The notes: generated by a model not told the origin, from the sequence alone. A DNA stretch of 32,000 nucleotides from an archaeon (GCA_024275415.1 JAJRZD010000033.1:50551-82550), one strand, 5' to 3'. Shown: positions 1 to 32,000, counted from the first letter of the stretch. Program-made: numbers and translations.

Positions 1-1
1 T

Positions 2-8087: not shown

Positions 8088-8391
8088 GCCGACCTCATAC
8101 TCCTGTGGGAGTGCTCGAGTCTATAAAGCCCTATAAATTACTTCAAGTGTTCATCTAAGGGATGTCCACGTTTGGGTAACGTGTAGCGCAGCTGTTTGCA
8201 ACCTTTTTTCCCGTGTCATATCCATGGCGATTAGCCCGCACCCCATGAATCGTTACATACCTTTTCATAGCAAACCAACTGTATCACCGAGCCGATTTGG
8301 ATAAATATTTTTGCGAGTTTTAGTTTCTGTCCAATAGATCACTTCTCGCAACACTCCAAGAAGTCCAGACGGTGGATGTTGTGAAGCAGCA

Positions 8392-8574
8392 CCTCTCCAT
8401 CAACCGACTCCGCATCCGTGTGGTATCTCTCAGATCCTTAATGGTTCCCGTAGGGACGTAGGAAGATCTCACAAATCCAGCTCTGAGCAGGACGACCAAC
8501 CAGACACAGTCCTTCAGGTCGGTTTTGTGCGATGACATGTCCTTGACCTGTCGGGCATAGTTTAATAGTTTCAT
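8392..8574 (-). mobile_element. IS110-family transposase remnant (fragment of the DEDD/RuvC-like domain)
   Basis: ARQVKDMSSHKTDLKDCVWLVVLLRAGFVRSSYVPTGTIKDLRDTTRMR matches the IS110 signature KTD..DA.WLA.LL..G.L..S.VP.....LR.L.R.R. The rest of the gene is absent or decayed. Confidence 0.8.
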
Positions 8575-8838
8575 TCCAGTCATGCTACGTGACCTCCTAG
8601 TTTTATCTAGGACTGTTGCCGGACTAACATTACAATTTTCAATACGTGTCCGCAACACAAATGGATAACTTCATCTGTTCGTTTCAGGTCATTTCTCACA
8701 CCGTCGTCCAGATGGCAGAGTCTACTCCAATCAGTCTAGTCTTGAAAGAGCATAGTATGGGAACGCACTCATGTTTTTTCACACGGGGCCCAGATGAAGG
8801 ATACTCTTATATTATCGAAAAGATTAACTAAACGAATT

Positions 8839-14039: not shown

Positions 14040-15056
14040 ATGAAACTCTTAACAACTAATCAATGGGACTTGCCCGGATTCGGAGCAGGTACGAAACATC
14101 GTAGAATCGAAGGATATCTTCATGAGATGCGTATCTTCGTCAATAGTGTCTGTAACCACAGATGCAGGTTCCCAGAGGGGCAGACTTGGTGCCACTCACG
14201 AGATGGGATGGTAGGTTTGGGAAGAGACATGGATTCGGAGAGTTGGCTATACCTTCTGGAAGGACTGGATCGATGGAACATGCATTCATTGAAGATTGCA
14301 GGAATGGAACCAACGTTACACCCAGATCTACCAAGTCTGATATCTGCAACTCAGTCTTTCAATATGAAAGATATTAGTATGACCACAAACGGGTTCCGGT
14401 TGGTACCCATACTACCTAATCTTGTCGAAGCTGGATTGAACCGACTAACTGTATCACTACATACTTTGAATCCATCTATCTTCAAGACCATAACTGGCGG
14501 AAGCGTCTTTCCAGTCCGTGAAGCTCTAGATTTGTGCGCAGATTTTGGAATACCGACAAAGTTGAATGTAGTTCTTCTTCGTGGAGTTAATGATGACATT
14601 CGAAACCTTCTAGAATATGCATCAAGCCGCCAGTTTGAGATCAAATTATATACTCTTCTCTGGCAACCTCATTTCGAATCAGACTACAACCGATACTTCG
14701 TTTCATGGGATGAGGTGATTCAACCTCTATCTAATGATTGGAGAGGAATTGAACTGGTCGAATTCGTGAATTCTCAGCGGTATCGCTACACACTTGAAAC
14801 TGAGAATGGCATAAAGGTCACAACAAGTTGGTTTCAACACAAGACCAACAGCATATATAACATCTGCAGGAACTGCCCACTGAACTCTAGGTGTGAGGAG
14901 GGATTCATGGGTTACGGGTTTGAAACAGACTCAAATTTCTTAGTGAATCCGTGCTATCTTCGACCAGAACTACGGTTTGACCTGAAACCTTTCTTGGAAC
15001 GGAAGTATTGTAGTGTAGAGAAACGACTTGATCGGATTGCAAATGATGGAGGGTGA
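14040..15056 (+). CDS. MoaA-related radical SAM enzyme with an atypical CX3CX8C motif and a four-Cys C-terminal cluster motif
   Basis: MRIFVNSVCNHRCRFPEGQTWCH, KIAGMEP, ISMTTNG, AGLNRLTVSLHTL.P..F..ITG, KLNVVLLRGVND and C-terminal CRNCPLNSRCEEG...NPC all align with the MoaA scaffold. No other moa/moe genes are nearby. Confidence 0.85.
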   Translation: MKLLTTNQWDLPGFGAGTKHRRIEGYLHEMRIFVNSVCNHRCRFPEGQTWCHSRDGMVGLGRDMDSESWLYLLEGLDRWNMHSLKIAGMEPTLHPDLPSLISATQSFNMKDISMTTNGFRLVPILPNLVEAGLNRLTVSLHTLNPSIFKTITGGSVFPVREALDLCADFGIPTKLNVVLLRGVNDDIRNLLEYASSRQFEIKLYTLLWQPHFESDYNRYFVSWDEVIQPLSNDWRGIELVEFVNSQRYRYTLETENGIKVTTSWFQHKTNSIYNICRNCPLNSRCEEGFMGYGFETDSNFLVNPCYLRPELRFDLKPFLERKYCSVEKRLDRIANDGG

Positions 15057-15059
15057 AAG

Positions 15060-18000
15060 GTGAAACGCAAGAAAAGGAAGGAGTTCGACAAAGAAGATAT
15101 TCTCCAACTGCTCCGAGACCTCAATATTGATAGAGTAATAGAAGATGCTCATCTGCTTTTGGATTTGAATCGTGATGGGAAGTGGTCCATTCGACTTCTT
15201 TTGCTCTCCTACCTTCTGAAAGAGAATGAACTACAGACAATACGTGAGTTTGTGGATTTCGGATTCTCAAAGATTGCAGATGACTCGTTGTTTCAAAGGT
15301 TCAATTTCAAGAAAATTAGAAGTACTCTAGCCATGCCCGAGAAATGGTTTACAGATGAAGGTGGTAGTGAATACATTCCTGGTTCTGGCAATGCAAGAAG
15401 TATCCTGAGCAAAAGAACAGATCTGTTTACAAAGATTGGCTCAAGGTACGTACTAAATGAGAAAAATGGTAGCAGGGATCTTGCACTCGTTCTCTTCATA
15501 TTCCTGTTGAAAGCGCGCGGAATCGATTTAGAAAAGATTCCTGATGCAGATGAAGTGGAGAGTGGGTCAGTTTCAGAAGGAACATATCGGCAACTATTCT
15601 TGATTGATTCCACCGGCAAGCCAACGTCGCTTTCTCACAAAGTTCAAGACATTGTAGAAGACTGTCCAGTACTAATCCAAGCGGAGGAATTTGATAAAGA
15701 TACGAAGAACATTCTTCCACACATTCAGAGAACAATACTCGACTTGCTTCAGCGACATCACAGTGCATTCACAAACCCCCCGCATAAGAGGAAATTAGCA
15801 ATAATCTGTAAACCGATCTACAGCTTACCTGCTAGAAGCAAGAATGAGGAGTTCACTATCAACAGCTTGCTGACTCCTTCAACAAGCGAGAAGGAGCATT
15901 CCATGAATGGTGTGGATGGAGAAAGCATTGAAGATTCAGATACTAATCCGGTTCTGCTTACAGGTAGTGCGGGAAGTGGAAAGTCATTCTGGATGATCAA
16001 ACTAGCTTTGGACTTGTGGAATCATTCATTTAAGTCAGGCAGCCCTAACAGGAGTGACAGGGTTATCCCACTCTTCATAGGACTTGGATCTGTTTTTCTT
16101 GACAAGACTAAACACGGTGAATCTCTGGTATATGGCGAAGAAAAAGCTACACTATGGCACATAGATGAACCACCTGACGAGATTCCTCGTAGATCTTTGA
16201 TAGACCGGTTTCTAGGAGCAATGCTCAAGAAATCACCTCAATATATCCGGAAAATTCTCGACCGAGTAGATTGGCACGAGGTCAAGTTCGTATTTCTCTT
16301 AGATGGGTGGGATGAACTTGGTCGTCGAGAGAGGAAAGAGATGATACGGCTCATCAAGTCAAGTCCGATAAACCAACTACCTTGCATCATTAGTTCCAGA
16401 AACAAGGACAGCGATTTTGATAGTATAGAAATTGAGCATATCCGATTAGAGAAACCCACCATTGACAATTGTAAGGACTATCTGCGTTCTCGTGGAATGG
16501 AAGAAGAAGTTCTCGACAAGGTCAAAGAATGGTTCCCCGATCCCTCTCCTCTTGACTTGGAGATTTTAGGTCGAGTACCAAAGATGGAGGAGATCTCCAG
16601 TGGTCGCGTTCCCGTTTATAGAACGTGGATTGAACTGCAAATCTTGTCCTCTATCCGGAGCGATATTCTACAAGATTTACGGTCACGTTCTCAGATTGAC
16701 ACATTTATAGAAGGCGAGTTTTTCCGTGACAAATCGTTGAAGGACTGGATTCGAAGCCGAAACAATTCTCATTCGGTCTGGAGATGCCTGCCATATATTG
16801 CATATCTGCAGAAAGATGGACTAAATACATCTCTTAGTTATGATCAAGTCGTTCAAGATAATCCTCTATTGAAGGAGTTCCTAGAGAAGCGTTATGGCTC
16901 TGGAGATTCACCTCATCCTGAAATTTCAAGGAATAACTTGGTTCCGTATTTGTCCGCTGAGTATGTTTTCAGATCATATCTATCGGGAAAATACCCTCCT
17001 ATTAGAGGGGATTTACAAACCTTCAGATTCCTAGTTGAGATATTGTCATATGATTTAGAGCGGCGACATGATAGAGAATTAATTCCGAGAAGTGCCGAGT
17101 TGACGCCACTACAAACTGCTGCAATGATATGTCTTCAGGGAGAATCTGAAGCCTATACTAATGGAGCAAGAATTCGCCCATTTATCGCTGAGGGAAAGTC
17201 AGGGTCAACTCCTTTCTATACTGCGTTGTTTGATGGTTTTGTTAAGTATTGGAGCCAAACATCAACTTGCTGTGTACGAAGGAATATTCTTGATGCATTC
17301 ACGAAGTTAATTCGCACGTTTATAGTTGAAGAGAAAGAAGGAAACCCCGCACAGTTCATTGTCCCGTTATTAGAGATCGAACAGGCATTTGATTCTAATA
17401 CCTTCTCCAAGTTGATAACAGAAGAACCTGATACGTCTGTAGACCTAGAAATTTGTGATTCGTCAGGATACACACTCTATTATCTCGATTATGAGAAAGT
17501 CCAGGATTGGCTCTTACAGCTTTCCGTTAAGAAGCCTTGGTTGACTCCTTGGACTGTGAGAGTAGTAAAGCAAGAGAACCGATTGAAAATTCGGGATATA
17601 ATTGATGAAGCCCCTGATGAGTGGATGATTTACGAAGTTCTGAACTACGTTACGTCCGGATTCACATCAATTGACTCTGAATGGTTTGAGAGCATCCATA
17701 GAAATGCACTACGCCTTGAATCCGACTTGTTATGGAATTCCATTGCAATTGGCCTTCAAATGTCGCGCGGAGAGATAGACGACTACAGATTCTCGAAAAT
17801 ACTTGAAGTTCTGGGCTCTCCATGCGTTGAGGAAAGATGGAAGTTTGGATTGATAGTCAATTTGGGGAAAGTCAGACTGCCTGAACGATACACAAGAGAG
17901 GTATGGCGATCTACTGAGCAAGGGAAAATCGGTTTAAAATATGGCATAGCACTTTGCCTATCCCAGGAGCTACCAGATATAGCCATAGATGATATCCTTG

Positions 18001-19772
18001 ATGCAATTCGGGATAGCGAAGGATCCGGGTGGCTGAGGCTGCTATTACCGGGGATTCTCCAAGAGGAATATGATGAAGAAGAAATCAATAGTCGTTTTGT
18101 TCAGCTCAGTTATACCATCGTGCAGGCAATCACACGAGTTAGGGTTGTTCCATGGGATGAAGCCCGTTTAAATAGTTTAATTGATATGTGGTGGGATTCA
18201 AACCTCAAGACATTGGAAGATGCACTATCTCTAATCAAGACAATATCGAAGAAACGGAGAGAGAACCAGCTAGCTATTCTGGATTGGAGAGAAACTGAGG
18301 CTCTCAAACGACTAGTAGTGTGGTTAGGGAGTTCGCGGAAATCCACCAAGAAGAAGTTCTTCAGGAAACTCATAGAATCTGAGATTGATATGACGGATTT
18401 CTCAGTAAGAGAACATCTATATCCCATCTATCAGGAAATCGATAACAGAACAGATCTTGATGAACTCCTTGTTGCGCGTTATCCGCTTTACCATTGCAGT
18501 ATATCGATACTCCCCTTGTCAAGAGAGTCGTGGTTAACTCATATCGACAAAGTGGATCGTGAAGAACTCCTAGAAAGTAACTGGTTGATGGAGATATACC
18601 TCGAAGCCGGAAACGTGGCAACCATCGATGGAGCTATTAGCCTTCTCAATGAAATACAGAATCAAAGTGATTATCTAATAGAAACCTTCGACTCATTAGT
18701 AAAATGGGTTCTTCAAAGGCCCACTGATGAGATTGCACCGTTTATACTTCAACTCCTTAAGGAGAATCCTGCAACTACAAGGATGGGTTATTGGCGAAGA
18801 GTAAAGGAGAGTGGCCTGATTAAAGCTCTTGTTCCTGTTTCGAAAAACAGTCCTGAAGTGTATACTCGAATTCTGGAGATTGCAAAGGAAATACCAGGTC
18901 TTCAGATCGATAAACGTTCTGAGCTTCAATTCCTTTTCGAGGCACTAGCACCTGATGATCAAATGAGAGTTGTTCGGGCTCACTTTGAGAGATTTGTGGG
19001 GAAGGAGTCCTTCTTTTTCGGAAAGACCCTAGAAGAGATAATCCTGATTCATGGTAATAAGAACGATGTAGATTCACTCGTTCGCTCATTAAATAAAGAA
19101 CCAAGAAACCTTGGGAACATTTGGTCGAAGAATCCGGAACGGGCAACGGAAATCTCAAAGAGGCTATCCAATCCCTTCTCGTGTCTTCTATATGAAATTG
19201 ATATGATTGGAGGTTGGGCTGAGTACAAGAGGGAATTAGAGAAGAATCCAAAGAAGGTTGAGAAAGATCTACTGCTATTCCTCAAGAATGATTGGATCCA
19301 TAAAGGCTATGAATTCCTTGTCGCAGGAGGAGTCTTGAGAGAGGTTGCATTGAAGCATTGGAAGCGGATATTTCAAAGTGACAAGGCCTCGAGAAACGAG
19401 ATTGAGTTATACCTTGGTGCTCTCTTTGAACCCGATGATGATGAGATTGTTGAGTATGTAGCAAGCGAAGTCGATGAAATCCACAGAAACCTCAAAGAAA
19501 GGGAAAAGGAAATAGCAAAGGCATATCGTACCCCTTGGTATTCTTGGAATATCCCTGTTCTTGATAAAATTCAAAATAGACACGGTTATACTGGTCTTAA
19601 ACGATTGCTTATGAAAGTAAAAGATCAATATTCAATTGAAGGTGTAATGACATATCTGGTGAAATCGGCGAAAAAAGAAGGAATTCCAAAATCTGAGATT
19701 GTATCACTGGACGAATACCTCAAGCTAAGCAGGGCGATCAGATGGCATTTGATGAAGGAATACGAAGACTAA
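15060..19772 (+). CDS. Large STAND NTPase of the NACHT class (NLR/Avs-like architecture)
   Basis: Walker A VLLTGSAGSGKS (about 15963), Walker B FVFLLDGWDEL (about 16300), sensor CIISSR and a GxP-equivalent PSPLDLEIL. An ~290-aa N-terminal region and an ~1000-aa helical C-terminal region flank the NTPase. The GTG start lies 3 nt after the radical SAM stop, with GGAGGGTGA upstream. Confidence 0.88.
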   Translation: MKRKKRKEFDKEDILQLLRDLNIDRVIEDAHLLLDLNRDGKWSIRLLLLSYLLKENELQTIREFVDFGFSKIADDSLFQRFNFKKIRSTLAMPEKWFTDEGGSEYIPGSGNARSILSKRTDLFTKIGSRYVLNEKNGSRDLALVLFIFLLKARGIDLEKIPDADEVESGSVSEGTYRQLFLIDSTGKPTSLSHKVQDIVEDCPVLIQAEEFDKDTKNILPHIQRTILDLLQRHHSAFTNPPHKRKLAIICKPIYSLPARSKNEEFTINSLLTPSTSEKEHSMNGVDGESIEDSDTNPVLLTGSAGSGKSFWMIKLALDLWNHSFKSGSPNRSDRVIPLFIGLGSVFLDKTKHGESLVYGEEKATLWHIDEPPDEIPRRSLIDRFLGAMLKKSPQYIRKILDRVDWHEVKFVFLLDGWDELGRRERKEMIRLIKSSPINQLPCIISSRNKDSDFDSIEIEHIRLEKPTIDNCKDYLRSRGMEEEVLDKVKEWFPDPSPLDLEILGRVPKMEEISSGRVPVYRTWIELQILSSIRSDILQDLRSRSQIDTFIEGEFFRDKSLKDWIRSRNNSHSVWRCLPYIAYLQKDGLNTSLSYDQVVQDNPLLKEFLEKRYGSGDSPHPEISRNNLVPYLSAEYVFRSYLSGKYPPIRGDLQTFRFLVEILSYDLERRHDRELIPRSAELTPLQTAAMICLQGESEAYTNGARIRPFIAEGKSGSTPFYTALFDGFVKYWSQTSTCCVRRNILDAFTKLIRTFIVEEKEGNPAQFIVPLLEIEQAFDSNTFSKLITEEPDTSVDLEICDSSGYTLYYLDYEKVQDWLLQLSVKKPWLTPWTVRVVKQENRLKIRDIIDEAPDEWMIYEVLNYVTSGFTSIDSEWFESIHRNALRLESDLLWNSIAIGLQMSRGEIDDYRFSKILEVLGSPCVEERWKFGLIVNLGKVRLPERYTREVWRSTEQGKIGLKYGIALCLSQELPDIAIDDILDAIRDSEGSGWLRLLLPGILQEEYDEEEINSRFVQLSYTIVQAITRVRVVPWDEARLNSLIDMWWDSNLKTLEDALSLIKTISKKRRENQLAILDWRETEALKRLVVWLGSSRKSTKKKFFRKLIESEIDMTDFSVREHLYPIYQEIDNRTDLDELLVARYPLYHCSISILPLSRESWLTHIDKVDREELLESNWLMEIYLEAGNVATIDGAISLLNEIQNQSDYLIETFDSLVKWVLQRPTDEIAPFILQLLKENPATTRMGYWRRVKESGLIKALVPVSKNSPEVYTRILEIAKEIPGLQIDKRSELQFLFEALAPDDQMRVVRAHFERFVGKESFFFGKTLEEIILIHGNKNDVDSLVRSLNKEPRNLGNIWSKNPERATEISKRLSNPFSCLLYEIDMIGGWAEYKRELEKNPKKVEKDLLLFLKNDWIHKGYEFLVAGGVLREVALKHWKRIFQSDKASRNEIELYLGALFEPDDDEIVEYVASEVDEIHRNLKEREKEIAKAYRTPWYSWNIPVLDKIQNRHGYTGLKRLLMKVKDQYSIEGVMTYLVKSAKKEGIPKSEIVSLDEYLKLSRAIRWHLMKEYED

Positions 19773-19908: not shown

Positions 19909-20012
19909 ATAATCATCTGGGTTGCCAGCATTATTCTGAGAACCTGTCTGACACGTTTCATCTCTCTATCGTCTGCTTCTGCAACTTGCTCCACCGCTCT
20001 GGGCTGATCAAG
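19909..20012. repeat. Direct repeat copy A: detached 3' end of the mazF-like gene (partner at 24367-24470)
   Basis: 96 of 104 positions are identical to 24367-24470, with a perfect 57-bp core (19920-19976 = 24378-24434). The minus strand reads LDQPRAVEQVAEADDREMKRVRQVLRIMLAT. Confidence 0.95.
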
Positions 20013-20110
20013 TACCATTAAGCCTACTTTTATCCCTCAAAAAGGCTAATATGTTCCGTAGCTAAGAATATAATGACCTAATAAGGAATCATACTGTTTA
20101 TGTAGAGGGA

Positions 20111-21591
20111 TTGATTACCATGGCTAGTATCTGGATGCTCTCAAAGGATGCAATGAGAGGAATGGACATAGTTGGTGCAATCTCTGAATTTCTTGACGAG
20201 TACCAAACAAAAGGACGTCCTACTTCCGAGTCCAGTGACCGCGTGCTATATGTTATAGAAAGACTCATCTTAGGTGCCAGAAGTTTCTTAGATTCTAATG
20301 TCAGAATTGACTCATTCTCGATGATGATTGCAGAGGCAGTACATACCGAGATGTCGAAGACACCAAATGAACTCATCTCAATCCTCGAAAGATGTGCAGA
20401 ACATATCCGTTCGCAGAGCGAGCACCTGAACGATTGCTTGGACATCCTACGCATCATCTCTAAGAATGTGATGCGAGTGACATCGAGGAGAGTGGATACA
20501 AGATCACTTGTCCTACATTAGTTGAAAAGCTGATTCATGAAACACGATCCAAGCTGAACAGGTTCAAGAATCAGACCGTTTCGATTCGTGGTATGCCCTA
20601 TTTTGAACCATTCTACAATTTCTCTATTTCCATGGTATCTAAGATATCAAGCTTTATCGATAGAGTGGAAAGAAGTTCGAATCCTTCAGATAGATTGACC
20701 CACATTTGGCTTTCTCAAGCATCACTCGACTGGCTTCTTATCCAGCATGGCTTCTTCAAGATGTCCTATCATGACTCCACAACAAACAAGTGGTGTGCAC
20801 TTCAAGGACTGGTCAAAACAGGTTCTGAGCTGTTTGAAATTGGCGCGCCAGTCCTTGGTACATTCTATAACACATATGGCTCCACTGGTACGTTCATTCT
20901 GAATAGGAGGATAGGCCAGCTATCTGGCGATGATTACTTTATGGTTATAACGGACGAACTGGATCCACCAATCTTTTGGCCGCTTGTGATTCATGAATTG
21001 GCTCATTGTTGGCTGAGTTCTCAGACAATTGTCGAGGAAATCAGCTCAAAAGTCCATTATAACAATGAGTCAAGTATTATAGAACGACGCGTCGAAGAAG
21101 CACTATGTGATGCAATTGCAACATCATTCATGGGACCTTCTTATGTTTACTCCTACATCAACCGTTTGTGGCACAGCTTTATGATGATGGATAGTTTCGA
21201 ATACCCCAAGAACTCTTTTCGTCTTGAGGTCATGATTAGAACTCTAGAACAAGCAAATTATGACGAAGTGGAGGATCTTAAAATCATAATTGAGGAAACC
21301 AGCACTGTAGACTGGGAGGATGAAGCAATTGTGGATTCTCTAGCACCAATTGAAGAGTTTGCAAAGCAATTGCCCTTCATTACTAAACCCAACTCTCTTG
21401 TAACAGATATAGAGAGTGTCAACGAGTTTGTGAATGCTCCACCAGCAAACCTACAGAAGCTCTTTCATGTGGGGTGGATGTTATTGAATACGTCAGACAT
21501 GAAAACATATTCTGATGAATTCAATAGCATTAACTCCACAATTCAGGAATCATTAGAACGGAACTATGCCACGTTCAATACCCAAACTTAG
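20111..21591 (+). pseudogene. HExxH (zincin-like) protein of about 490 aa split by a one-base frameshift near 20462; track ORFs 20111..20521 and 20593..21591 are one gene
   Basis: The frame of 20593 is open back to 20464 (ECDASDIEESGYKITCPTLVEKLIHETRSKLNRFKNQTVSIRGMPYF), and adding one A at 20462-3 joins both ORFs. Motifs WPLVIHELAHCWL and VEEALCDAIATSFMGPSY, plus YP.NSFRL. Confidence 0.7.
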
Positions 21592-23853
21592 CTCTCTGGC
21601 AATTCTATGAGCCATTCTAAGTGGTGCTGGGGTCGAATAACTTTTCCCCGGAGATCCCCAGTTGAGATACGATAATTTGAATACATCTTCAAACGCTTTG
21701 AATTGATTAACTGAACCAGTAATATGAATAAAACCAATAGTGATGGGCCTGGGAGTGCCATGTTCATATTCATCTGCACCAGCTGCACATAGAACCATAT
21801 TTGACTCATCTAGGATATAGTAGTTTCCAGAGTCTGGTCTCCAGATATCGGACTGCCTTCCACGATATATCCTGAAGGGAGTAGTTTCCCTAATAGTAAT
21901 AATAGCTGAATGAGCAATACCTGATTTCTTCACAACAAACTCAAAATCACTTCTTTCTTGATCATAGACACTACCATCCCGAAGATAGAGAAGTGATTTT
22001 ATATCAGGGACAAGTGCCTTAGCATCTTCTATGCACCTCGACAGACTATCTCTATCGATACTCTCCCCGACAGCAAGTTTTGTTTGACCAATTTGGTATT
22101 TCCCTATCTTGTCATATACTATCATCATTACCCAGTTCTCTGATTTAGCTCGCCCAACGTCTATTGCAATATAGCAATCATATGTAAGTTGAGAATCTAG
22201 AACCCACGGAATACAGTTCGCGCGGGTAAGCAATGATGCAGCATATCCAGCCAACGGAAAGGTTTTTTTCTGTTTCACAATTTTGTTAATAGTTCGTGTT
22301 GTTATACACTTTGCAGGCACCTTAAGGCGTCCGCAAATATTCGTAATATCATCATGAAGATTCGTGTTACCATCATCAATGATGGCCACAACGATTGCAT
22401 TTCTAGTATCGAAAGTGCGGGACTTCTGAAGTTGTTTTTCCATGTTTCTCATATTTGGTTCCAAGAGAGTTGGTTTCTGAGGAAGTCTGACTTTGAAGTT
22501 CCTGTCTGTGTATTTTACCAGTGAATCATAGAATGACAATGCTAAATCCCTGTTCCCAGAGGAGTACAGGTATGCCCTTTTGATAGGTGTGACTTGATAC
22601 AGCCCTCTCTTTATCTCATCTCTAATCCTCGAAGGTGAAACCGCATTTTGACTAGCCGCGACAAGTTTAGGCAATGGAATCCGATTGGATGAGGGGAATT
22701 CCAGCGGTGATTCAAATTCGATTTGGTACGGACCAAGTTTAAGAGCAGAAAACTCATACTCATCGAACAGATCCATTGTTTTCTCCCAGCGGGTTCGTGC
22801 TGTGTGCTCTGGGTCACGGCTTCCCGGATGAGCATTATCCGAATAATAGGTATGTTCAGCAGTTATCCTAGATGGGACATCCTGAAATCGTACATTCTTG
22901 TGAAGAAATTGGGGTGCAAATGCAAATTCCCCTCTTCGCAACCCCGGCTGATTCATATCCAACCAGTTTCTTGGTTTCCGGTCGCCATACTTTGTAATCA
23001 GGTAATCAGCAATAGATTGTTTCGCATCAGCAGGAATCTTACTAATCGGCCTTTCGTCTATCCCATCTATCCCCACATCCATTGGAGCTAGACTGTAGAA
23101 GAAATGAACACCCCTGAATGACTTTCCCAGTCGTTTCATTTCCCACTTTCTCAGGTTGATTTCCCGTCTGAGTGATTCTAATCCCGAGGCCTTGATATGT
23201 TCAAGATACGGGCGTGAGTCAATATATCTTGTTGCCACATCTAGAGAGAGTATAATTCTTCCGTCATTCAGCACATTATATCGATACCTAGGCCCCCTGA
23301 ACAGTGTAAGAGGCACTTGATAGTCATTTGTAAGATCGATTCCTACTACCGGGAAATACGTGTGTGTTCCTCCATTCCAGAGGACTCTTTTAGTGCTAGA
23401 TTCCTTGGTCTTATTGAGTAGTGCTGTTAGAGATTTGTGACCCGCTATTCCGTGCTCTAGATCAAGCTTTCCCACGTATATAGCTCTTGCAGAACCAACG
23501 GATACTTGCTCTTGGATAGGGTTGCGATTCAATAAACCAACAGCAAGGTTCTTTCCTCGTGCTGAATAGAATACAAATGGGGTTTTGTTATCCCATTGCA
23601 ATTTGCTTATGGTCTTCCCAACAAGACCGTATTTGTTCGCTCCAGAACCTACACCTTCGAGTTCGAAAGCATCGAGTCGTTGTGACACTTCATTGAATGA
23701 CAAGCTGCCTGTGAACACGTTTGAAACAATCGACCAGTTATCGCCAACCACGAATACTCCCTCCTGTTCTACTACGTCCTGCAAATTTTTTATATGTATG
23801 TATTGGATTGAGGATGTCAGCTTAAGGTGGGATGCAAGAAGAACAGCATTCAC
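21553..23853 (-). CDS. ago: Full-length (long) prokaryotic Argonaute with an intact DEDH catalytic tetrad
   Basis: 766 aa. L1 (IILSLDVATRY), PAZ (SIADYLITKYG...NQPGL...FAPQFL), MID (IVVAII...VPAKCI...LLTRANCIPWVL) and PIWI (YIAIDVG, GESID, YLRDG, GTPRPI, KLSYLNW, PAPLRMAHRIA). Confidence 0.95.
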   Translation of the reverse strand: MNAVLLASHLKLTSSIQYIHIKNLQDVVEQEGVFVVGDNWSIVSNVFTGSLSFNEVSQRLDAFELEGVGSGANKYGLVGKTISKLQWDNKTPFVFYSARGKNLAVGLLNRNPIQEQVSVGSARAIYVGKLDLEHGIAGHKSLTALLNKTKESSTKRVLWNGGTHTYFPVVGIDLTNDYQVPLTLFRGPRYRYNVLNDGRIILSLDVATRYIDSRPYLEHIKASGLESLRREINLRKWEMKRLGKSFRGVHFFYSLAPMDVGIDGIDERPISKIPADAKQSIADYLITKYGDRKPRNWLDMNQPGLRRGEFAFAPQFLHKNVRFQDVPSRITAEHTYYSDNAHPGSRDPEHTARTRWEKTMDLFDEYEFSALKLGPYQIEFESPLEFPSSNRIPLPKLVAASQNAVSPSRIRDEIKRGLYQVTPIKRAYLYSSGNRDLALSFYDSLVKYTDRNFKVRLPQKPTLLEPNMRNMEKQLQKSRTFDTRNAIVVAIIDDGNTNLHDDITNICGRLKVPAKCITTRTINKIVKQKKTFPLAGYAASLLTRANCIPWVLDSQLTYDCYIAIDVGRAKSENWVMMIVYDKIGKYQIGQTKLAVGESIDRDSLSRCIEDAKALVPDIKSLLYLRDGSVYDQERSDFEFVVKKSGIAHSAIITIRETTPFRIYRGRQSDIWRPDSGNYYILDESNMVLCAAGADEYEHGTPRPITIGFIHITGSVNQFKAFEDVFKLSYLNWGSPGKSYSTPAPLRMAHRIARELSLGIERGIVPF

Positions 23854-24366: not shown

Positions 24367-24470
24367 ATAATCATCTAGGTTGCCAGCATTATTCTGAGAA
24401 CCTGTCTGACACGTTTCATCTCTCTATCGTCTGCCTCTGCAACTTGCTCTACTGCTCGGGACTGGTCGAG
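24367..24470. repeat. Direct repeat copy B: 3' end of the intact mazF-like gene (partner at 19909-20012)
   Basis: See copy A. This copy carries the TAG stop where copy A has CAG. Confidence 0.95.
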
Positions 24471-24728
24471 CGCTCTTATCTGGTGACAGAGGATGAACGA
24501 GTCGTTCTTCAGTTTCCCTTTCTTTTTTACAGGTATCTCAGTCCAGAAATTCTTCTGTGATGAGGTGAGTGGCACTATAACAACGATTCCTGATGGCCCC
24601 TTTACACCGGCCCGTGTGGATGGATTTGCAACCACTAGACAGGGTCTAACTTTGTTGGTTTCACGACCCCTTGTTGGATCAAGGTCAAAGTAGGCAATAT
24701 CGCCTTGCTGGAGATGAGATGAACTCAT
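24375..24728 (-). CDS. mazF: PemK/MazF-family mRNA interferase toxin
   Basis: QGDIAYFDLDPTRGRETNKVRPCLVV, IVVIVPLTS and SFILCHQIRALD; the catalytic RP and PLTS motifs are retained. Confidence 0.93.
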   Translation of the reverse strand: MSSSHLQQGDIAYFDLDPTRGRETNKVRPCLVVANPSTRAGVKGPSGIVVIVPLTSSQKNFWTEIPVKKKGKLKNDSFILCHQIRALDQSRAVEQVAEADDREMKRVRQVLRIMLAT

Positions 24729-24738: not shown

Positions 24739-25539
24739 TCACTCCAGCTTTTTCAAATAGTCATCTAGCCCCATCTCTGCTAAAGCGCTGTCCTCCTCAT
24801 GAACTGGCACGGCAATGCTGAGTGGTTCACTGACATCGAGTTCAGTGTCTAGCGATTCATCGACCTGAATCAGGATGTCCAAAGTCCAATCACGCAACAG
24901 CTGTTCCATCTGCGCGATCTGGGCCGCGTTTATCTCATCCTCATAGCGAACAAGAAACATAGTCAGCATGACCAACGTTATGAATGATCCCATGTTGCAT
25001 GTAAAGACGATAGACTGGATCATCTTGTGCAATGTTGGGTCAGTTTCAACAAGTATCTCAGACGGGTATTGCAATTCAGAATCATGTGCATATGAAGCCA
25101 TTATCTTGCTTCCCATGGCATGCGTGATGAGATCTGGATCGATTGTGATATCTGACATAACAATGTTGTTGAGCTTGCTCTCCATAAGACGAAAGAATGC
25201 CATCATCGTGTTCATCGTCAGACCGAAATTGGATGCCAGAACAGGACCGTATTTCTGCTCTAGCAAGAACTGTATCTTTTGTTCTCGAATGGAACTATAG
25301 TAAGACTCCAGAACATCAAATGTTCCAGATGCCTGTTCAAGGGCAGTATCCAGGTTTCTTAGAACATGCTCTATCCTATGTGACATTAGTTCTACAGTCA
25401 ACTGCTTGATATTTCGCCCAATATTGCCTACGAGCAGATTTTCAGGCATTCTCGGAGATAAGCAGAACTCATCCTTGTTAGCAATCCCGACAGGCATTAT
25501 CGGAAGAATCTGAATCATTGTAGCAACTCCCACAGTCAT
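24739..25539 (-). CDS. Putative antitoxin/partner of MazF (266 aa, unusually large)
   Basis: Lies 10 nt upstream of mazF on the same strand. The acidic C-terminal tail EEDSALAEMGLDDYLKKLE resembles toxin-binding tails of MazF antitoxins; the rest is helical and unrecognised. Confidence 0.55.
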   Translation of the reverse strand: MTVGVATMIQILPIMPVGIANKDEFCLSPRMPENLLVGNIGRNIKQLTVELMSHRIEHVLRNLDTALEQASGTFDVLESYYSSIREQKIQFLLEQKYGPVLASNFGLTMNTMMAFFRLMESKLNNIVMSDITIDPDLITHAMGSKIMASYAHDSELQYPSEILVETDPTLHKMIQSIVFTCNMGSFITLVMLTMFLVRYEDEINAAQIAQMEQLLRDWTLDILIQVDESLDTELDVSEPLSIAVPVHEEDSALAEMGLDDYLKKLE

Positions 25540-26040: not shown

Positions 26041-26116
26041 GAGCCCTGTGATCCCTCATTAGGAAACATTACCAATAACACATTTATACTCTGATAGTGT
26101 TTGAATGTTAGGGGTT

Positions 26117-27172
26117 ATGAGTTTGGCAGAAGAGGGACTTGCTGACAAATGGATTGACAAAATCAGTCAACTGGTTCTTGATGCGTGTGACCAATTTGAT
26201 GAACTTCAGCGTAATGTGAAGAATGTTCGCCTACAGTTCAAAATGCCGGCGAAACACCACAGTTCATTCTCATTTGCATTTGTCGACGGTGGCTCTGGTT
26301 ATGTTGATCTTGCTGGCGGATCCATCTATTTTATCCGTGCAGCTGGGGCTTTCTTCAAAAATCCCGATAAGCCAATATGGGAGTCTGATGTCGGTGCAGG
26401 GTTCACAATTCTATCTCGAAATGTTGATCGATTTGTCGGAATTGAAAGGGACATCTTGGAGATACAGACAGCAATCGAACTGTTACAGTACAAGCCAGAC
26501 ATGATAGTAATGGATAATTCTCTTGCATCATACGCAGGTATGGGCGTTCCATACTCCATTTTGCATCGCTTTCAAGACCCCCGACCTGATGGTAGTCCCG
26601 AGTTCCAATACTTCAACCGATTCGTCACATTAATGAAACGATTCGATGCGCTCATCACAGAGTGTTTGCTAAATGACATCCTTCTGGTAGGTATAACGAA
26701 GGATCCAAGGTCTAGGGGTTACGCAAAGAATCTGCAATTGGGGAATAGTGTTATGGACATCACTGCTGTTTCTCTGATTGCAGATGGACAGGTCGGATTC
26801 ACGCCAGAGTTTGACTCGCAATACATTAGAATTGATAGAATTGAGGAATATCTCAAAAAGCATAAGATCCTCACTGATAATAGAGGGGATTTCATGACTT
26901 GTTTTTGCATTCTCTCTCCAAAAGCTAATCCCTTCAAGATTGACTATCTCAAATCACAAAAAAATCAGGCTCGGGAAATCCGGGAAATGATAGTTTCCCT
27001 ACATGATGGAAGTGGATACCTTCTGCCATCTCATATTGTGCACGATCATGCCACAATATCCTCAGAACTAGCTGAGGGGCTTACACAACTTGTCTTGAAG
27101 AGGACAGCTGAGCGGAACATGAGAACAGCTGAAACAATCCTTAGAGCGCAAAGAAGGAGTAGATTCGGATGA
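26117..27172 (+). CDS. nurA: NurA 5'-3' nuclease
   Basis: FAFVDGGSG (first catalytic Asp), IVMDNSL (second Asp), LVGITKD and GYLLPSHIVHDHA. First gene of the herA-mre11-rad50 operon. Start may be 26105 or 26117; TTTATA at 26083 favours 26117. Confidence 0.88.
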   Translation: MSLAEEGLADKWIDKISQLVLDACDQFDELQRNVKNVRLQFKMPAKHHSSFSFAFVDGGSGYVDLAGGSIYFIRAAGAFFKNPDKPIWESDVGAGFTILSRNVDRFVGIERDILEIQTAIELLQYKPDMIVMDNSLASYAGMGVPYSILHRFQDPRPDGSPEFQYFNRFVTLMKRFDALITECLLNDILLVGITKDPRSRGYAKNLQLGNSVMDITAVSLIADGQVGFTPEFDSQYIRIDRIEEYLKKHKILTDNRGDFMTCFCILSPKANPFKIDYLKSQKNQAREIREMIVSLHDGSGYLLPSHIVHDHATISSELAEGLTQLVLKRTAERNMRTAETILRAQRRSRFG

Positions 27173-28785
27173 GCAACAAAGAACTAGTAGGCAATCTGAT
27201 AGGAATCACTAACCCAGTCGAACTAGTCGTTAGGATAAGACCTGACATTATTCGGAAAAACCCTCTCGAGCTTGGAGAACATGTGGTCATCGAATATCAA
27301 AGTGCGGACATGGACAAAGATGTGTTGGGGAGGGTATCTGAAATCCATCTTGAGAACTTGAACATGCCATCGACTCTATTGAATTCCCCTCAGGATTTTG
27401 AGGCTTTGGCAAGGCTCGGTGATCTCTCAGATGGAGAGGTATTGACCGCACAGGTGACAGTCATTGGGTATCTCACAGAGAAGAACAAGCTGGAGATCCC
27501 TCGTTACGCACCTCCTCCAGGCGCGAATGTCTACCGTGCACCGACTGATATACTGAACAGGGCTTTTGGTCAAGGACACTGTAGAATCGGCTCTTTGAGA
27601 GCAAATCAAGAAGTCGAGGTCAAGGTGAATGTCAACGAGCTAGTCAGACGTCACTTCGCTGTTCTTGCGATAACCGGTGGTGGAAAAGGGAACACCATAG
27701 CTGTGTTAGTCAAGCAGATGATTGCAATTGGGGGTACCATCATTATTATCGATCCCCATAGCGAATACTCCACAATGCGTCGTGATGTTCAGGGGCGTTT
27801 AATCACATTCTCTACAGACACAGACTTGGAGAATGGATCTTATGGTCTCCGACTGAGATACAGTAGCCTTAGTTTCAGAGACCTCACAGACATTTTGAGG
27901 GTACCATCAAAGGCAGACCGGATGCGTGCTTTATTGAGGGATGCCTACAACATACTCGAGGGAACTAACTGGGATCTCGATGATCTCCGCAATGCTCTGA
28001 AGACGGCATCTGAGTCAGGAAAAGACCGTTCATCACAGTACTATTCGCTAATGGATAGGATTGAAAACGCGACCGAGTTTCTTGTTTTTGACAAGACTGA
28101 GGAAGTTCCTTTGGTGGGAGATGGACAATCAAAAGTTGGACTGCTAAACAAAGGTTTTGTGACAGTACTTGCACTTTCAGGGCTACCAGATGAGGTTCAA
28201 CAGGCAATAACCAAGACAGTAGCTACTAGGATATTCAAAGGCGGTATGTCTTGGAGGCATAATGATGATACTGCTACTCCAATCCCCGGGCCAGTACTAC
28301 TTATTGTCGAGGAGGCACACATCTTCGTGCCAGCAGGGGGAGGTTCTGCAGCAATGGCGATTCTCAAACGTATCGCCTCTGAGGGGAGGAAGTTCGGTGT
28401 TGGTCTTGGTCTGGTATCCCAGCGACCTGGAAAACTAGACTCTGACGTTCTCTCGCAATGTAACAGTATGATTGTCCTGAAAATAGTCAACCCCTATGAC
28501 CAGAACAACATCGAAAAATCTGCTGAAGCACTTAGTAAGGATCTCATGAAGGAGCTTCCTTCTTTGAATGTTGGGGAAGCCGTTGTCTTTGGGTCTGCAT
28601 TCAACCTTCCTACCGTTGTCAAAGTAGACAAATACGAAGGGACGCTCGGTGGTTCTGATATAGATGTTGTTGATAACTGGAATCAAACATATTCAAATAT
28701 AGGTACTACACCGGCACAGGACTACGATGGCGGAAGCGAGGGTTTCGAGGAGGTTGATTGGGATGAGCACGCAAGAGGTAATTAA
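27169..28785 (+). CDS. herA: HerA bipolar DNA helicase/ATPase
   Basis: N-terminal HAS barrel, RHFAVLAITGGGKGNT, IIDPHSEY, Walker B IVEEAH, EGRKFG and SQRP.KLDSDVLSQC. Overlaps nurA by 4 nt (ATGA). Confidence 0.95.
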   Translation: MSNKELVGNLIGITNPVELVVRIRPDIIRKNPLELGEHVVIEYQSADMDKDVLGRVSEIHLENLNMPSTLLNSPQDFEALARLGDLSDGEVLTAQVTVIGYLTEKNKLEIPRYAPPPGANVYRAPTDILNRAFGQGHCRIGSLRANQEVEVKVNVNELVRRHFAVLAITGGGKGNTIAVLVKQMIAIGGTIIIIDPHSEYSTMRRDVQGRLITFSTDTDLENGSYGLRLRYSSLSFRDLTDILRVPSKADRMRALLRDAYNILEGTNWDLDDLRNALKTASESGKDRSSQYYSLMDRIENATEFLVFDKTEEVPLVGDGQSKVGLLNKGFVTVLALSGLPDEVQQAITKTVATRIFKGGMSWRHNDDTATPIPGPVLLIVEEAHIFVPAGGGSAAMAILKRIASEGRKFGVGLGLVSQRPGKLDSDVLSQCNSMIVLKIVNPYDQNNIEKSAEALSKDLMKELPSLNVGEAVVFGSAFNLPTVVKVDKYEGTLGGSDIDVVDNWNQTYSNIGTTPAQDYDGGSEGFEEVDWDEHARGN

Positions 28786-30022
28786 GATCGGTCAGATGGC
28801 TGACCTGCATCTTGGCTTTAGGCAATATGGTCTGTTTGAGAGAGTAGAAGATTTCTGGAACGCCGCAAGGACTGCATCTCAGAAACTAATTGATGCCGAA
28901 GTCCAGCTTGTGGTAATCCCAGGGGACATCTATAATGACAAACGTCCCTATCCCATTGCTCAACGACATGCAATGAGAATCCTTCAAATGTTCAAGGAGA
29001 AAGACATCCCTGTCTATGTGACCCGAGGGAACCATGATGCGTCCTATGCGTGGCGTGAGCGACAGGGCGGAGATTCCCTTGATATCTTGAATGACCTTGG
29101 CTTAGTTCATTATATCAACGACACCGTTGTCGAACCAAAGAACCTCAATGTCCGGATATGGGGATTGGGATATTATGGCAAGGCAACAGGTAGCAAACTA
29201 GTTGATTTGATTGAGCAGAATCATGAATTACTTGAAGACAAATCCAAAGCCAATATTCTTCTTTTACATGCATATCTTGATTCAATGATAGAAGGTGAGG
29301 ATCTAAGTGAATACGAGCTCGGGATTCATAACTTTGATTATGTAGCAATCGGGCATTATCACAAATGGTGGGTATCAGGCTCAAAACGTATAGTCTGCAG
29401 CGGTTCAACTGAGCACACGCTATCTTCAGACTGGGATGAACCGAAGAGGTCTGCTGCTGTTGTGGAACTATCTAAGAAAGGGCCATCATGGCATATTGTA
29501 GTGAACCGCTTGAGGTACAATGTGCGACCAAAAATCGCACGCATCCTTGACTTGGGACTAATTGACGCTGATCATGCCATGGTTACTGCCAAGGACACAC
29601 TACGCGAGATTGACGAAGATAAAGCTCTTATCCGTCTCGAGTTGCATGGAAAACTCAAGGACGTATCAAGAAGTGTGGACTCGCGGGAAATTGCAAATAC
29701 TGCGACAAAAGCCCTTCATGTTCGTGTTATTGATATGTTCGACTTTGGGGGAATTGCAATAAAACATGATATATCCGTGGATCAAGTCATGGCTGAGGTG
29801 TTCAAGAAACAGTTCAATATCGATAATAGTGAAACGAATCTTTGGGTTGCTTTGGCTTTAGAAGCAAAAGATGCACTCTTAGGAAGAGGAGTGGATCATG
29901 GATCGACAGTAGAGAAATTGCTACAGGATTACTCGAATCGTATCCCCTCACTGAGTACAGATAAAACTCAATCTGGAGGCAAGCGAACTTCAAAGCGAGG
30001 AAGCAGGGGGAAGGCCAATTGA
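28763..30022 (+). CDS. mre11: Mre11 nuclease
   Basis: Phosphoesterase motifs ADLHLG, GDIYN, GNHD, LLH and GHYH. The likely start is ATG 28763 (MSTQEVIKIGQMADLH). Confidence 0.95.
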   Translation: MSTQEVIKIGQMADLHLGFRQYGLFERVEDFWNAARTASQKLIDAEVQLVVIPGDIYNDKRPYPIAQRHAMRILQMFKEKDIPVYVTRGNHDASYAWRERQGGDSLDILNDLGLVHYINDTVVEPKNLNVRIWGLGYYGKATGSKLVDLIEQNHELLEDKSKANILLLHAYLDSMIEGEDLSEYELGIHNFDYVAIGHYHKWWVSGSKRIVCSGSTEHTLSSDWDEPKRSAAVVELSKKGPSWHIVVNRLRYNVRPKIARILDLGLIDADHAMVTAKDTLREIDEDKALIRLELHGKLKDVSRSVDSREIANTATKALHVRVIDMFDFGGIAIKHDISVDQVMAEVFKKQFNIDNSETNLWVALALEAKDALLGRGVDHGSTVEKLLQDYSNRIPSLSTDKTQSGGKRTSKRGSRGKAN

Positions 30023-32000
30023 TTCTGAAGACACTCGAATTGAAAAATGTAAAATGCTTCAAGAAACTGAAAGTTGACTTCACTGAGGGAAAGAATCTCC
30101 TTGTGGGCAGAATCGGGTCTGGCAAGAGCACAATCCTCGAATCTATCTTCTATGCTCTTTTTGCAAAGTACTACAAAGGAACTTTGGCTGACCTCATTCG
30201 GAGGGGTGAAAATGAAGCCCAATTTGCACTAGTGTTTGAACACAATGACACTGAATATTCTGTCAAGAGGACGCTCAAAAGAACAGGAGGTCAAACTGCC
30301 TATCTCTGGAGAACCGGAAAGGATGAACCCATTGCTGAAAGGCAATCAACTGTCACGGCGGAAATAGCAACTCTATTGAATGTAGATACTGATACTTTTG
30401 CAAATCTGGTTCATGTGAAACAGGGTGAGATCACAAGAATAATCCATGTAACTCCAAGTGAAAGGAAAAAGCTGTTCGACAAACTCTTAGGTATTAGTGA
30501 CTACGAGAAAGCCCATACTGAATGTACCCCTCTTCTCTCACAAATCGAAACAAAACTAGAACGTATCAACGCCCTCAGAGAACGATATCAAGAAGACGCG
30601 GACAAGTTCAAGGATGCCAAAAAGAAATTGGCAGAATTAAAGAAGAAAAAGAAGGAAACTAAAGGCAATCTCAAGCGACTGTTGACTGAGAAAAAGAATC
30701 TTGATGCCCAATACAAAAAACTCGATAGACTCAGAACCAAGCTAACGAAGGTTCGAGCAAATATCGAGAACGCTGAAATGAATCTGAAAGCACACAACGA
30801 AAAGAAACAAGAGCTCCAACAGAAGGTTGTCCAACTGTGTCTTGAAACAAAAATCCGAAAGATGAAGGATCCAACTCGAATGCTAGACAATGCAGAAACA
30901 AAACTGGCATCTGCACAGACTGAACTTGCATCAGTGCGAGCAGAAAAAGACAAGCTCGTTGGAACATTGGAGAAACTGAAATACAAACGCATAGAGCGTG
31001 AGAATCTCAGCGAATCTATTAGAAAATCTGAAGAAACTGTTGACGCGATGAAAACTCTTCTGACCTCCCATTATCCTGAACTTCTAACAACTGAAACTAC
31101 AAGTTGGATGGGACAAATCCAATTGAAGATGGACGAATTGGAACAGTCAAAGAAACTTGTAGAAGACCAGATTGAAGCAGCAAGAACCATTAAGGAGGAC
31201 TATGAACGAAAGAAGAACGCCATTAGAGACCTCCAACGCCAGATCAAAAGTCAACGTGCGATAATACGGGATACTACCGCCCTCGCTAGACAATCAGGTG
31301 GGAAAAATTGGAGAGAAATCGCTTCAGAGGATGTTGCGGATTTAGAGTCCCGAAGTAGTGAAATACGCGCGACCTTAGAAACATACTCTTCTAGAAGGGA
31401 CGAAGCAATAAAATCGAAGACCAAAGTGGAAAAACGAATCGAAGATTACGAATCAAGTTTACAATCGCTCACTGGAATGGCAGGAAAGAAATGCCCTAGG
31501 TGTGGTCAAAGAATAACCAAAAGCCATGCAGAGAAACTCGCAAAGGACATCACGGAGAAACTTGAACAGGCACAAGAAACACTGACCGAAACCGAGCGAA
31601 CCCTTGATGAAATTGACATCAAGATAAAAGACAAAAAAGCCGAGCTGCAAAGGCTAGGTGATAACATAGCTCTTGTCAATAAACTCTCATCATACCTTGG
31701 CTCTCTGTTACCAATCGAAGACGAGATTACTAAACTCCAAAGCAATCTGGATACAGCCAGGACTGATTTACACAAGTTGAAAGAGATCTATGAACCTCAA
31801 GCAGCTTCAAGATTAAAAGCGCAATTGAAATCAATTGAGAAAGAGATGAAGACCTATACTAGTATTTCTGCCAAGGTTGAACAAGGTCTGAAAGAGATGG
31901 ATAACATAAAAGAACTCGAGAACAAACGCAAAAAAGTCATACAGGAACTTGCAAGTCTAGAATCAAAGGTGAAGTCTAAATCCATTGACAAATTTGACAA
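30019..32000 (+). CDS. rad50: Rad50 ABC-ATPase, partial (runs off the window; absent from the ORF track)
   Basis: The TTG start overlaps the mre11 stop (TTGA). LELKNVKCFKKLKVDF, Walker A LLVGRIGSGKSTILESIFYALF, Q-loop VHVKQGEI, a long coiled coil and the zinc hook KKCPRCGQ at about 31492. The frame is open to the window end. Confidence 0.95.
   Translation, partial: MILKTLELKNVKCFKKLKVDFTEGKNLLVGRIGSGKSTILESIFYALFAKYYKGTLADLIRRGENEAQFALVFEHNDTEYSVKRTLKRTGGQTAYLWRTGKDEPIAERQSTVTAEIATLLNVDTDTFANLVHVKQGEITRIIHVTPSERKKLFDKLLGISDYEKAHTECTPLLSQIETKLERINALRERYQEDADKFKDAKKKLAELKKKKKETKGNLKRLLTEKKNLDAQYKKLDRLRTKLTKVRANIENAEMNLKAHNEKKQELQQKVVQLCLETKIRKMKDPTRMLDNAETKLASAQTELASVRAEKDKLVGTLEKLKYKRIERENLSESIRKSEETVDAMKTLLTSHYPELLTTETTSWMGQIQLKMDELEQSKKLVEDQIEAARTIKEDYERKKNAIRDLQRQIKSQRAIIRDTTALARQSGGKNWREIASEDVADLESRSSEIRATLETYSSRRDEAIKSKTKVEKRIEDYESSLQSLTGMAGKKCPRCGQRITKSHAEKLAKDITEKLEQAQETLTETERTLDEIDIKIKDKKAELQRLGDNIALVNKLSSYLGSLLPIEDEITKLQSNLDTARTDLHKLKEIYEPQAASRLKAQLKSIEKEMKTYTSISAKVEQGLKEMDNIKELENKRKKVIQELASLESKVKSKSIDKFD

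Follow-up and report, generated by a model that had tools for sequence, protein, structure and literature searches.

Does the Argonaute gene in a 32,000-nucleotide (nt) stretch of archaeal DNA (GCA_024275415.1 JAJRZD010000033.1:50551-82550; the whole stretch is hereafter called the window) encode a nuclease that works alone, or one component of a larger system? The gene, ago, encodes a long prokaryotic Argonaute (pAgo), and an earlier note made from the sequence had described the protein as a stand-alone slicer. We propose that this Argonaute (Ago) is part of a three-gene, cassette-borne pAgo system in which it is bound by a partner protein and a protease serves as the output or as a switch, and we put the probability of this reading at about 0.55. 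The other two genes encode a small helical protein and a putative zinc peptidase with an HExxH motif (the HExxH protein). The features that define the proposed system are listed below, with positions counted from the first nucleotide of the window.

21553..23751, minus strand: long pAgo gene, encoding 732 amino acids (aa) from GTG 23751; the open frame extends to 23853
20593..21591, plus strand: Ago-linked HExxH protein, 332 aa, described from its motifs, model, fold matches, and linkage to ago
20120..20521, plus strand: small helical protein of 133 aa, linked to ago and without a known family, described from its conservation and a complex model
21553..21591, no strand assigned: convergent overlap of 39 nt, in which the coding regions of ago and the HExxH gene run into each other at their 3′ ends, read from the sequence coordinates

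Linkage of ago to two accessory genes

Genome and metagenome collections yielded 14 related loci with enough downstream DNA, and both accessory genes were located beside ago in each of them. The accessory pair was also present in four more distant loci, whose Argonautes share 25–34% identity with the window protein, so that the linkage was observed in 18 of 18 loci. The convergent order found in the window is the usual one, and the genes were co-directional in the order ago, small gene, HExxH gene in two loci (L012 and L019), where the linkage persisted. The small gene directly preceded the HExxH gene in every locus, and the two were separate genes with their own conserved ends throughout, for which reason a single frameshifted gene of about 490 aa was rejected as a reading of them.

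Of 400 Asgard species genomes, four contained the HExxH family, and full-length members of this Ago clade were found in exactly those four, adjacent to it; 25 further genomes carried only other pAgo clades. The pairwise identities of Ago co-varied with those of the HExxH and small proteins across 14 loci, with Spearman coefficients of 0.92 and 0.91 that are descriptive only, the loci being akin. The overlap between ago and the HExxH gene measured 33–39 nt in 11 of the 12 convergent Asgard-type loci examined and 12 nt in the twelfth, and it was retained down to about 25% Ago identity; the two transcripts would be complementary at their 3′ ends. As shown by comparison of these loci at the sequence level, ago, the small gene, and the HExxH gene are inherited as a unit. 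The earlier statement that ago has no co-oriented accessory gene held for its immediate flank; it had missed the two conserved convergent partners and a co-oriented mazF pair upstream. Full-text searches of the searchable literature found no description of an Argonaute–peptidase association, and the trio of a pAgo, a putative MID-binding adaptor, and a zincin-like protein looks like an undescribed pAgo defence system.

Gene structure and catalytic site of the Argonaute

The open reading frame (ORF) reported earlier, 21553-23853 on the minus strand, was present as a stop-free frame of 766 codons, and residues of Ago are numbered throughout according to this 766-aa ORF. Its reported start probably needs correction: the true start is probably GTG 23751, 34 codons inside the called ORF, which gives a gene at 21553-23751 and a protein of 732 aa. 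The start was moved because the homologues are 729–737 aa long and the alignment begins at about residue 35, because residues 1–37 were disordered in the structural model, and because a GGAGG-like ribosome-binding box (23764-23756) lies 5 nt before this GTG. An A/T-rich, TATA-like box (23800-23784) was located about 30 nt further upstream. The 615 nt upstream of ago showed no conserved sequence in blastn or tblastx searches, matched nothing in Rfam, and contained no ORF that was convincing.

23756..23800, minus strand: likely ago expression signals, from direct reading of the sequence, their function being inferred

The strings IDVG, GES, RDG, AHR, SIADYLITKYG, and LSLDVAT quoted in the earlier note were all present in the ORF. 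The first four contain D565, E597, D626, and H749, respectively, which aligned with the catalytic positions 541, 577, 611, and 727 of CbAgo in the family profile alignment (6qzk chain). Positions 541 and 611 are Ala in the crystallised 6qzk chain, which is presumably a catalytic double mutant of CbAgo. Among 19 family members, D565 and E597 were invariant and D626 was nearly invariant, and at the fourth position the closer members had H and the most distant had D. The alignment thus bears out the DEDH tetrad; Ago carries an intact site by sequence and looks able to cut, with slicing competence predicted.

The AlphaFold2 model of Ago had a mean predicted local distance difference test (pLDDT) value of 86.4 and a predicted template-modelling score (pTM) of 0.83. 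In Foldseek, it aligned along its full length to long Argonautes from all domains of life, and over about 800 columns to CbAgo, PliAgo, TtAgo, and eukaryotic Argonautes (eAgos) with template-modelling (TM) scores of 0.6–0.7, and the hidden Markov model (HMM) alignment of the Ago family to CbAgo, which begins inside PAZ, spanned PAZ through PIWI. The complete N-L1-PAZ-L2-MID-PIWI layout in one chain, as claimed earlier, was confirmed by this model together with the HMM alignment.

A Pfam scan of Ago returned no family, including Piwi, at E ≤ 0.01, because the protein is too divergent for the Pfam Piwi model, and the PADLOC pAgo model recognised it at 3.5e-43. The second-best PADLOC model is named 'PprPIWI', a name that the literature search found in no paper. 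In the PDB sequence search, the best match was CpAgo (1.9e-10), followed by VbAgo, PfAgo, MjAgo, and TtAgo; the 19-member family profile gave values of 5.6e-33 for VbAgo, 1.4e-30 for CbAgo, and 9e-28 for CpAgo. The MID pocket of Ago did not fit the canonical 5′-phosphate motif (Y/H/R)-K-Q-K and read H500-T504-K515-R544 at the positions of Y-K-Q-K in CbAgo. Across the clade, the first position was H or Y, the second was never K, the third was K or Q, and the fourth was R or K.

The HExxH protein

Six residues of the HExxH protein, H134, E135, H138, E169, C172, and D173, were invariant in 16 sequences with identities down to 22%, and together they make up an HExxH...ExxCD pattern. The pattern fits the gluzincin signature, which consists of HExxH and a downstream Glu in an ExxxD-type helix, and in the model, whose mean pLDDT was 88.9, the motifs were located on two helices, 130-141 and 160-180. 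The protein has no membrane segments. It has an N-terminal helical hairpin and a C-terminal helical domain without a named match.

The best structural neighbours of the model were BepA (6sar, Z 7.9) and 3c37 (Z 7.4), followed by Ste24 and HtpX, which are of the M48 type, and then by M13 enzymes. All of these fold scores were below the confident range (Z ≤ 7.9, Foldseek E ≥ 0.059), and Foldseek of the model against the PDB gave no match at E ≤ 0.001. The M48 and M56 clusters of the ESM Atlas matched the model at TM scores of 0.38–0.43. M48 and M56 peptidases (BepA, HtpX, Ste24, and BlaR1-type) share HExxH and the helix with the downstream Glu with the HExxH protein. At the sequence level, no match to Pfam M48, M56, or U49 was obtained at E ≤ 1 for any of the 17 members of the HExxH family, and the M78 (ImmA/IrrE) profile matched one of the 17 at E 0.22. 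A search of PDB sequences with the HExxH profile gave nothing meaningful, tblastn against plasmids gave no match, and when a broader profile was used in a second word-indexed search, all relatives recovered were Ago-linked. Identities with Lit/U49 and with M48 had been considered as leads from an ESM feature search (score 0.80) and were not confirmed by Pfam. These results suggest that the HExxH protein is a soluble, gluzincin-like putative zinc peptidase of an unnamed family and not a member of M48.

Two Cys residues flank the zinc ligands directly: C139, in HELAHC, is nearly invariant, and C172, in EEALCD, is invariant. A second metal site is one possible role for them, and a redox switch is another.

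The small helical protein and its predicted binding to Ago

The small protein was most conserved at its extreme ends, with MLSKxxMxGM at the N-terminus and TSRxV[DE]xxS at the C-terminus. It matched no Pfam family, gave no usable match in the ESM Atlas, and contained no detectable helix-turn-helix (HTH) or repressor family. Its complex with Ago was modelled from Ago residues 35-766 and the small protein, each supplied as its own alignment, and the median of three runs was compared with three controls. The median ipSAE was 0.73, and the best control gave 0.00. Of 80 solved complexes, 58 reached the value of 0.73, as did 2 of 110 mismatched pairs; these counts serve only as a rough guide when own alignments are used. 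The three runs shared at least 95% of their contacts, and the pLDDT of the partner was 81.

In the predicted interface, residues 435-482 of Ago face residues 55-83 of the small protein, including the conserved E72 and P82. The Ago segment comprises the first helices and an edge strand of MID and holds the clade-conserved LPxK...LE..M..Q. The model therefore predicts that the small protein binds the MID domain of Ago.

Related pairs in haloarchaea and bacteria

Four haloarchaeal plasmids (L031-L034: NZ_CP118159.1, NZ_CP031151.1, NZ_CP146627.1, and NZ_CP019068.1) encode a pAgo together with a convergent HExxH protein of 340–380 aa and a protein of 112–150 aa. Three of the pAgos are full-length (728–737 aa) and the one from Halosimplex is shorter, with 573 aa; WP_077208232.1, from plasmid pHOS300 of Halorientalis sp. 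IM1011, is one of the four. None of the four retains the catalytic residues, the tetrad positions being S/x/N/x. On two of these plasmids, a large UvrD-helicase gene follows; all of these genes carry only hypothetical-protein annotations.

In bacteria, an Ago encoded on a Rhizobium plasmid matched PliAgo (7r8f) over its full length at E 1e-172. Its operon encodes an HTH regulator, a PD-(D/E)XK nuclease, and the pAgo, followed by a 118-aa gene product and a 412-aa gene product with HELAH...EEFFCD...GPAY. By hhalign, the HExxH families matched with a probability of 96.9% (E ~1e-10) and the small-protein families with 93–95%. The PliAgo operon has been described as a nuclease, a regulator, and the pAgo, and the word 'protease' does not occur in the text (Lisitskaya et al. 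2022, PMC9360449). As shown by sequence comparison, the same kind of pair accompanies the dead haloarchaeal pAgos and the PliAgo-type bacterial operon.

Phylogenetic position

The placement of Ago was taken from nine of the published tree files of Bastiaanssen et al. 2024 (PMC11217426), which contain an orthologue 68% identical to it: Asgard_ASG203_01028 (Thor, 733 aa) is the same sequence as the family hit with this identity. In the nine files, ASG203_01028 paired with Asgard_ASG092_00089 (Loki) with 100% support on a long branch. Beside this pair were ASG207_00250/00814 and WP_077208232.1, and a large clade containing 'PlAgo' was adjacent, with weak to moderate backbone support. HrAgo1 (FWG169_03248), ASG308_00888, and the eAgos were placed elsewhere in all nine. 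The clade is small, as 22 clusters at 50% identity reached E < 1e-30 among 1.8 billion representatives.

The earlier note had regarded the PAZ string SIADYLITKYG and the L1 string LSLDVAT as close to a eukaryotic consensus. Both also aligned to CbAgo and VbAgo, for which reason we consider them general features of long Argonautes, and the trees and profiles separate the clade from HrAgo1 and the eAgos. Animal PIWI-clade proteins scored about 1e-12 against the family profile, far behind bacterial long-A pAgos, and neither human AGO and the AGO clade nor HrAgo1 gave a match at E ≤ 1. In the Foldseek search with the Ago model, PliAgo had the best TM score (0.70), and HrAgo1 ranked 47th. Ago is, on sequence, a new member of a published, uncharacterised Asgard pAgo clade in the long-A region, distinct in the published trees from the characterised DNA-guided long-A pAgos, within which it does not nest. 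Asgard archaea have many horizontally mobile pAgo clades, of which this is one, and it provides no link to eukaryotic RNA interference (RNAi).

Comparison with named systems

Known pAgo systems either cut by themselves or are inactive and work with an NADase, nuclease, or membrane effector. CbAgo, CpAgo, and VbAgo were the best profile matches of Ago and align with it at the catalytic and PAZ motifs, with an identity of 25–30% mainly in MID-PIWI; CbAgo differs from it in its canonical Y-K-Q-K pocket. To our knowledge, these three act without conserved partner proteins. Effector-coupled pAgos (short, long-B, and SiAgo-like) share the possession of partner genes with the window system and differ in their inactive PIWI, a feature that the haloarchaeal relatives have and the window Ago does not. 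The haloarchaeal plasmid pAgos have the same convergent arrangement and homologues of both partners and are neighbours in the published trees, but they have lost the tetrad, have a MID pocket nearer to the canonical Y..Q..K, and are uncharacterised.

The PliAgo/RslAgo group of DNA-guided, RNA-cleaving long-A pAgos (PMC9360449; PDB 7R8F-K) also comprises long pAgos with an active tetrad. Although PliAgo was the best structural match, its identity to the window Ago is only about 15%, and its MID pocket, R467/H498/S501/Y530, in which the second residue, His, and the fourth, Tyr, are absolutely conserved, does not agree with H-T-K-R, as the Rhizobium PliAgo orthologue also showed when aligned with the window Ago. 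Both have a basic residue at the third position ahead of the last catalytic residue (R746 in the window Ago and K759 in PliAgo); this third position is His in earlier-studied pAgos such as TtAgo (Lisitskaya et al. 2022, PMC9360449). Unlike in PliAgo, the conserved C-terminal ...VPF of the window Ago suggests a normal use of the C-terminus. The PliAgo operon has upstream genes for a PD-(D/E)XK nuclease and an HTH protein, whereas the window cassette has neither, the PD-(D/E)XK-like ORF at 13511 belonging to another module. The accessory genes are convergent in the window, whose host is archaeal, whereas those of the PliAgo type are translationally coupled downstream.

HrAgo1 (Bastiaanssen et al. 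2024, PMC11217426; PDB 8R3Z) is, like the window Ago, a long Argonaute with an active site from the same phylum, but it belongs to a different clade, and its gene cluster encodes proteins with eukaryotic Dicer domains, not a peptidase pair (PMC11217426). The SiAgo-Aga1-Aga2 system of Sulfolobus islandicus (PMC11788926) follows the same logic of an archaeal pAgo, a small bound adaptor, and a separate effector; SiAgo is a short, inactive pAgo with Aga2 as its membrane effector, whereas the window Ago is long and retains the tetrad. No sequence relation between SiAgo-Aga1-Aga2 and the trio turned up, no search having been aimed at one.

A guide-directed sensor, a protease, and a small protein also occur together in Craspase, which consists of the type III-E gRAMP/Cas7-11, the TPR-CHAT protease Csx29, and its substrate Csx30. 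A functional likeness is possible, with the coupling in the window system being hypothetical. The proteins themselves are unrelated, since Craspase combines a caspase-like cysteine protease with CRISPR and the window system a zincin with an Argonaute.

Host, defence island, and cassette borders

The nearest named homologues of Ago came from metagenome-assembled genomes of Candidatus Thorarchaeota, and the orthologue ASG203_01028 is labelled 'Thor'. Judged by these sequences, the host is an Asgard archaeon of the Thorarchaeota type, in agreement with the Asgard origin suggested earlier. The window belongs to a 3.5-Mb genome that is 93% complete.

The G+C content fell from about 0.50 to 0.39–0.45 across about 8.4–26 kb of the window. 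This low-G+C stretch contains genes for McrBC, a type II-like methyltransferase, a radical SAM enzyme and a 1570-aa STAND NTPase, the Ago cassette, and a MazF pair; by its gene content, ago is located in a defence island, and this part of the earlier description stands. The low-G+C genes, with the repeats and toxin genes that border the cassette, are described here as its context.

19909..20012, no strand assigned: left copy of a 104-nt direct repeat, consisting of a displaced mazF 3′ end
24367..24470, no strand assigned: right copy of the 104-nt direct repeat, inside the 3′ end of the intact mazF
24375-24728 and 24739-25539, minus strand: mazF/PemK toxin gene (PemK_toxin, 3.3e-24) and an upstream gene of 266 aa, regarded as context and not as core

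The two copies of the 104-nt repeat, which duplicates the 3′ end of mazF, were 92% identical and enclosed exactly three genes and the upstream region of ago, 4.4 kb in all. We regard the small gene, the HExxH gene, and ago as one inserted cassette because this repeat brackets them. A mazF fragment was present at the left border (19920-20147, minus strand), and no integrase was found inside the cassette. The repeats look like the result of an insertion into the toxin gene mazF or of recombination at it. MazF was considered as a core partner or guide-making RNase and was rejected, as a similar upstream pair was found in only one other locus (L003/L008).

Two observations concern cassettes elsewhere. 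A distant trio (L029, JGI Ga0374085_199418, 235-kb contig, 1-10232) had a phage-type integrase gene on one side and a gene for a large terminase (Terminase_6N) on the other, and it may be carried by a provirus or another mobile element. A second HExxH copy (L025, G321:C16:37361-37693) was truncated to profile positions 1-111 and contained an in-frame TAG, while a complete trio was present in the same genome; the truncated copy is probably a decayed cassette.

Two neighbouring gene groups were also noted. At window positions 14040-19772, a radical SAM enzyme with weak pVip-like PADLOC matches is directly followed by the 1570-aa STAND/NACHT-like NTPase, and the two form a separate candidate defence pair. 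A complete archaeal NurA-HerA-Mre11-Rad50 operon for DNA-end resection (26105-32000) adjoins the island and forms its right border; its genes look like ordinary housekeeping ones.

Proposed mechanism and alternative explanations

In the proposed system, the complex of Ago and the small protein, loaded with a guide, would sense invader nucleic acid. The PliAgo relatives hint at DNA guides and RNA targets, which we offer as a weakly supported guess. Target binding would be relayed via the small protein to the zinc peptidase, and the peptidase would act as the output by cleaving either the small protein or another protein, of the cell or of the virus, and thereby arrest infection. In the Asgard clade, slicing by the intact DEDH site would add direct destruction of the target. 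The output role is favoured because the pair is retained by the dead haloarchaeal Agos, for which no other effector is evident. A more specific version, in which recognition activates an otherwise silent zinc peptidase as a counterpart of Craspase, in which the arrangement is shared by the Asgard, haloarchaeal, and PliAgo-type systems, and in which the mRNA overlap adds antisense self-control, is advanced only tentatively.

Several points weigh against the three-gene protease system. The peptidase activity is read from motifs; the fold matches are moderate, as Z 7.9 is below the reliable level for helical models, and the protein has no Pfam family. The complex score is the model's own confidence, obtained from custom alignments, and the homology of the bacterial 118-aa protein, when this protein was compared alone by hhalign, was not significant. 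The guess of DNA guides and RNA targets is weak, given the identity of about 15% to PliAgo and a H-T-K-R pocket of neither the canonical nor the PliAgo type. Finally, all effector-coupled pAgos known to us are catalytically inactive, whereas the window Ago keeps its tetrad, and therefore the pair could be a regulator and not an effector.

This last point leads to the main rival explanation, which we consider rather unlikely: the small protein bound to MID would be a safety catch that the peptidase removes or processes on a signal, following the logic of ImmA/ImmR and IrrE/DdrO, so that the pair would regulate Ago. The small protein is indeed predicted to lie on MID, where the guide's 5′ end is held; a complete tetrad needs no separate effector; the small gene always stands directly ahead of the peptidase gene; and conservation in the small protein is highest at its termini, as expected of a degron or cleavage site. 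However, the dead haloarchaeal pAgos keep the pair, and an inactive Ago with a regulator alone would have no output. Moreover, no HTH or repressor family was detectable in the small protein, and, by comparison of sequence positions, the predicted interface lies at Ago 435-482 and not at the pocket residues 500/504/515/544. A role of the pair in guide biogenesis or loading seems improbable. It has a precedent in AmAgo, an active long-A pAgo with a conserved HEPN RNase partner (Agap-HEPN) that makes its guides (PMC11162769), and the predicted contact of the small protein with MID would suit it, but neither partner shows a nuclease or nucleic-acid-binding family signature, and the conserved motif is that of a peptidase.

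The stand-alone slicer of the earlier note, with the neighbouring genes as unrelated island cargo, appears about as improbable. The intact tetrad, the full set of domains, the many long-A pAgos that work alone, and the location of the accessory genes on the opposite strand all agree with it. It does not account for a pair linked to ago in every one of the 18 loci and confined to the same four of 400 genomes as the Ago clade, for a linkage that outlasts a change of orientation, for the co-divergence of the three proteins, for the predicted complex of Ago with the small protein, or for the recurrence of the pair beside related haloarchaeal and bacterial pAgos. The least credible explanation is that Ago is an RNA-guided RNA slicer on the eAgo lineage, an Asgard relative of the Argonautes of eukaryotic RNAi. 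The Asgard host speaks for it, as do the Foldseek E values of about 1e-32 for animal PIWI-clade structures, which are close to those of bacterial pAgos, and the family profile, which scores animal PIWIs better than TtAgo. Against this, ASG203_01028 never groups with HrAgo1, ASG308_00888, or the eAgos in the nine tree files, the profile and Foldseek results for the AGO clade and HrAgo1 given above point away from it, and the gene annotation of the window includes no RNase III or Dicer-like gene nearby.

If the three-gene protease system is real, proteolysis would join the outputs of Argonaute immunity, and active and inactive Argonautes would be able to share one accessory module. The same kind of pair follows the PliAgo-type operon, and PliAgo has been studied as an RNA-targeting tool; part of its biology may have been overlooked.

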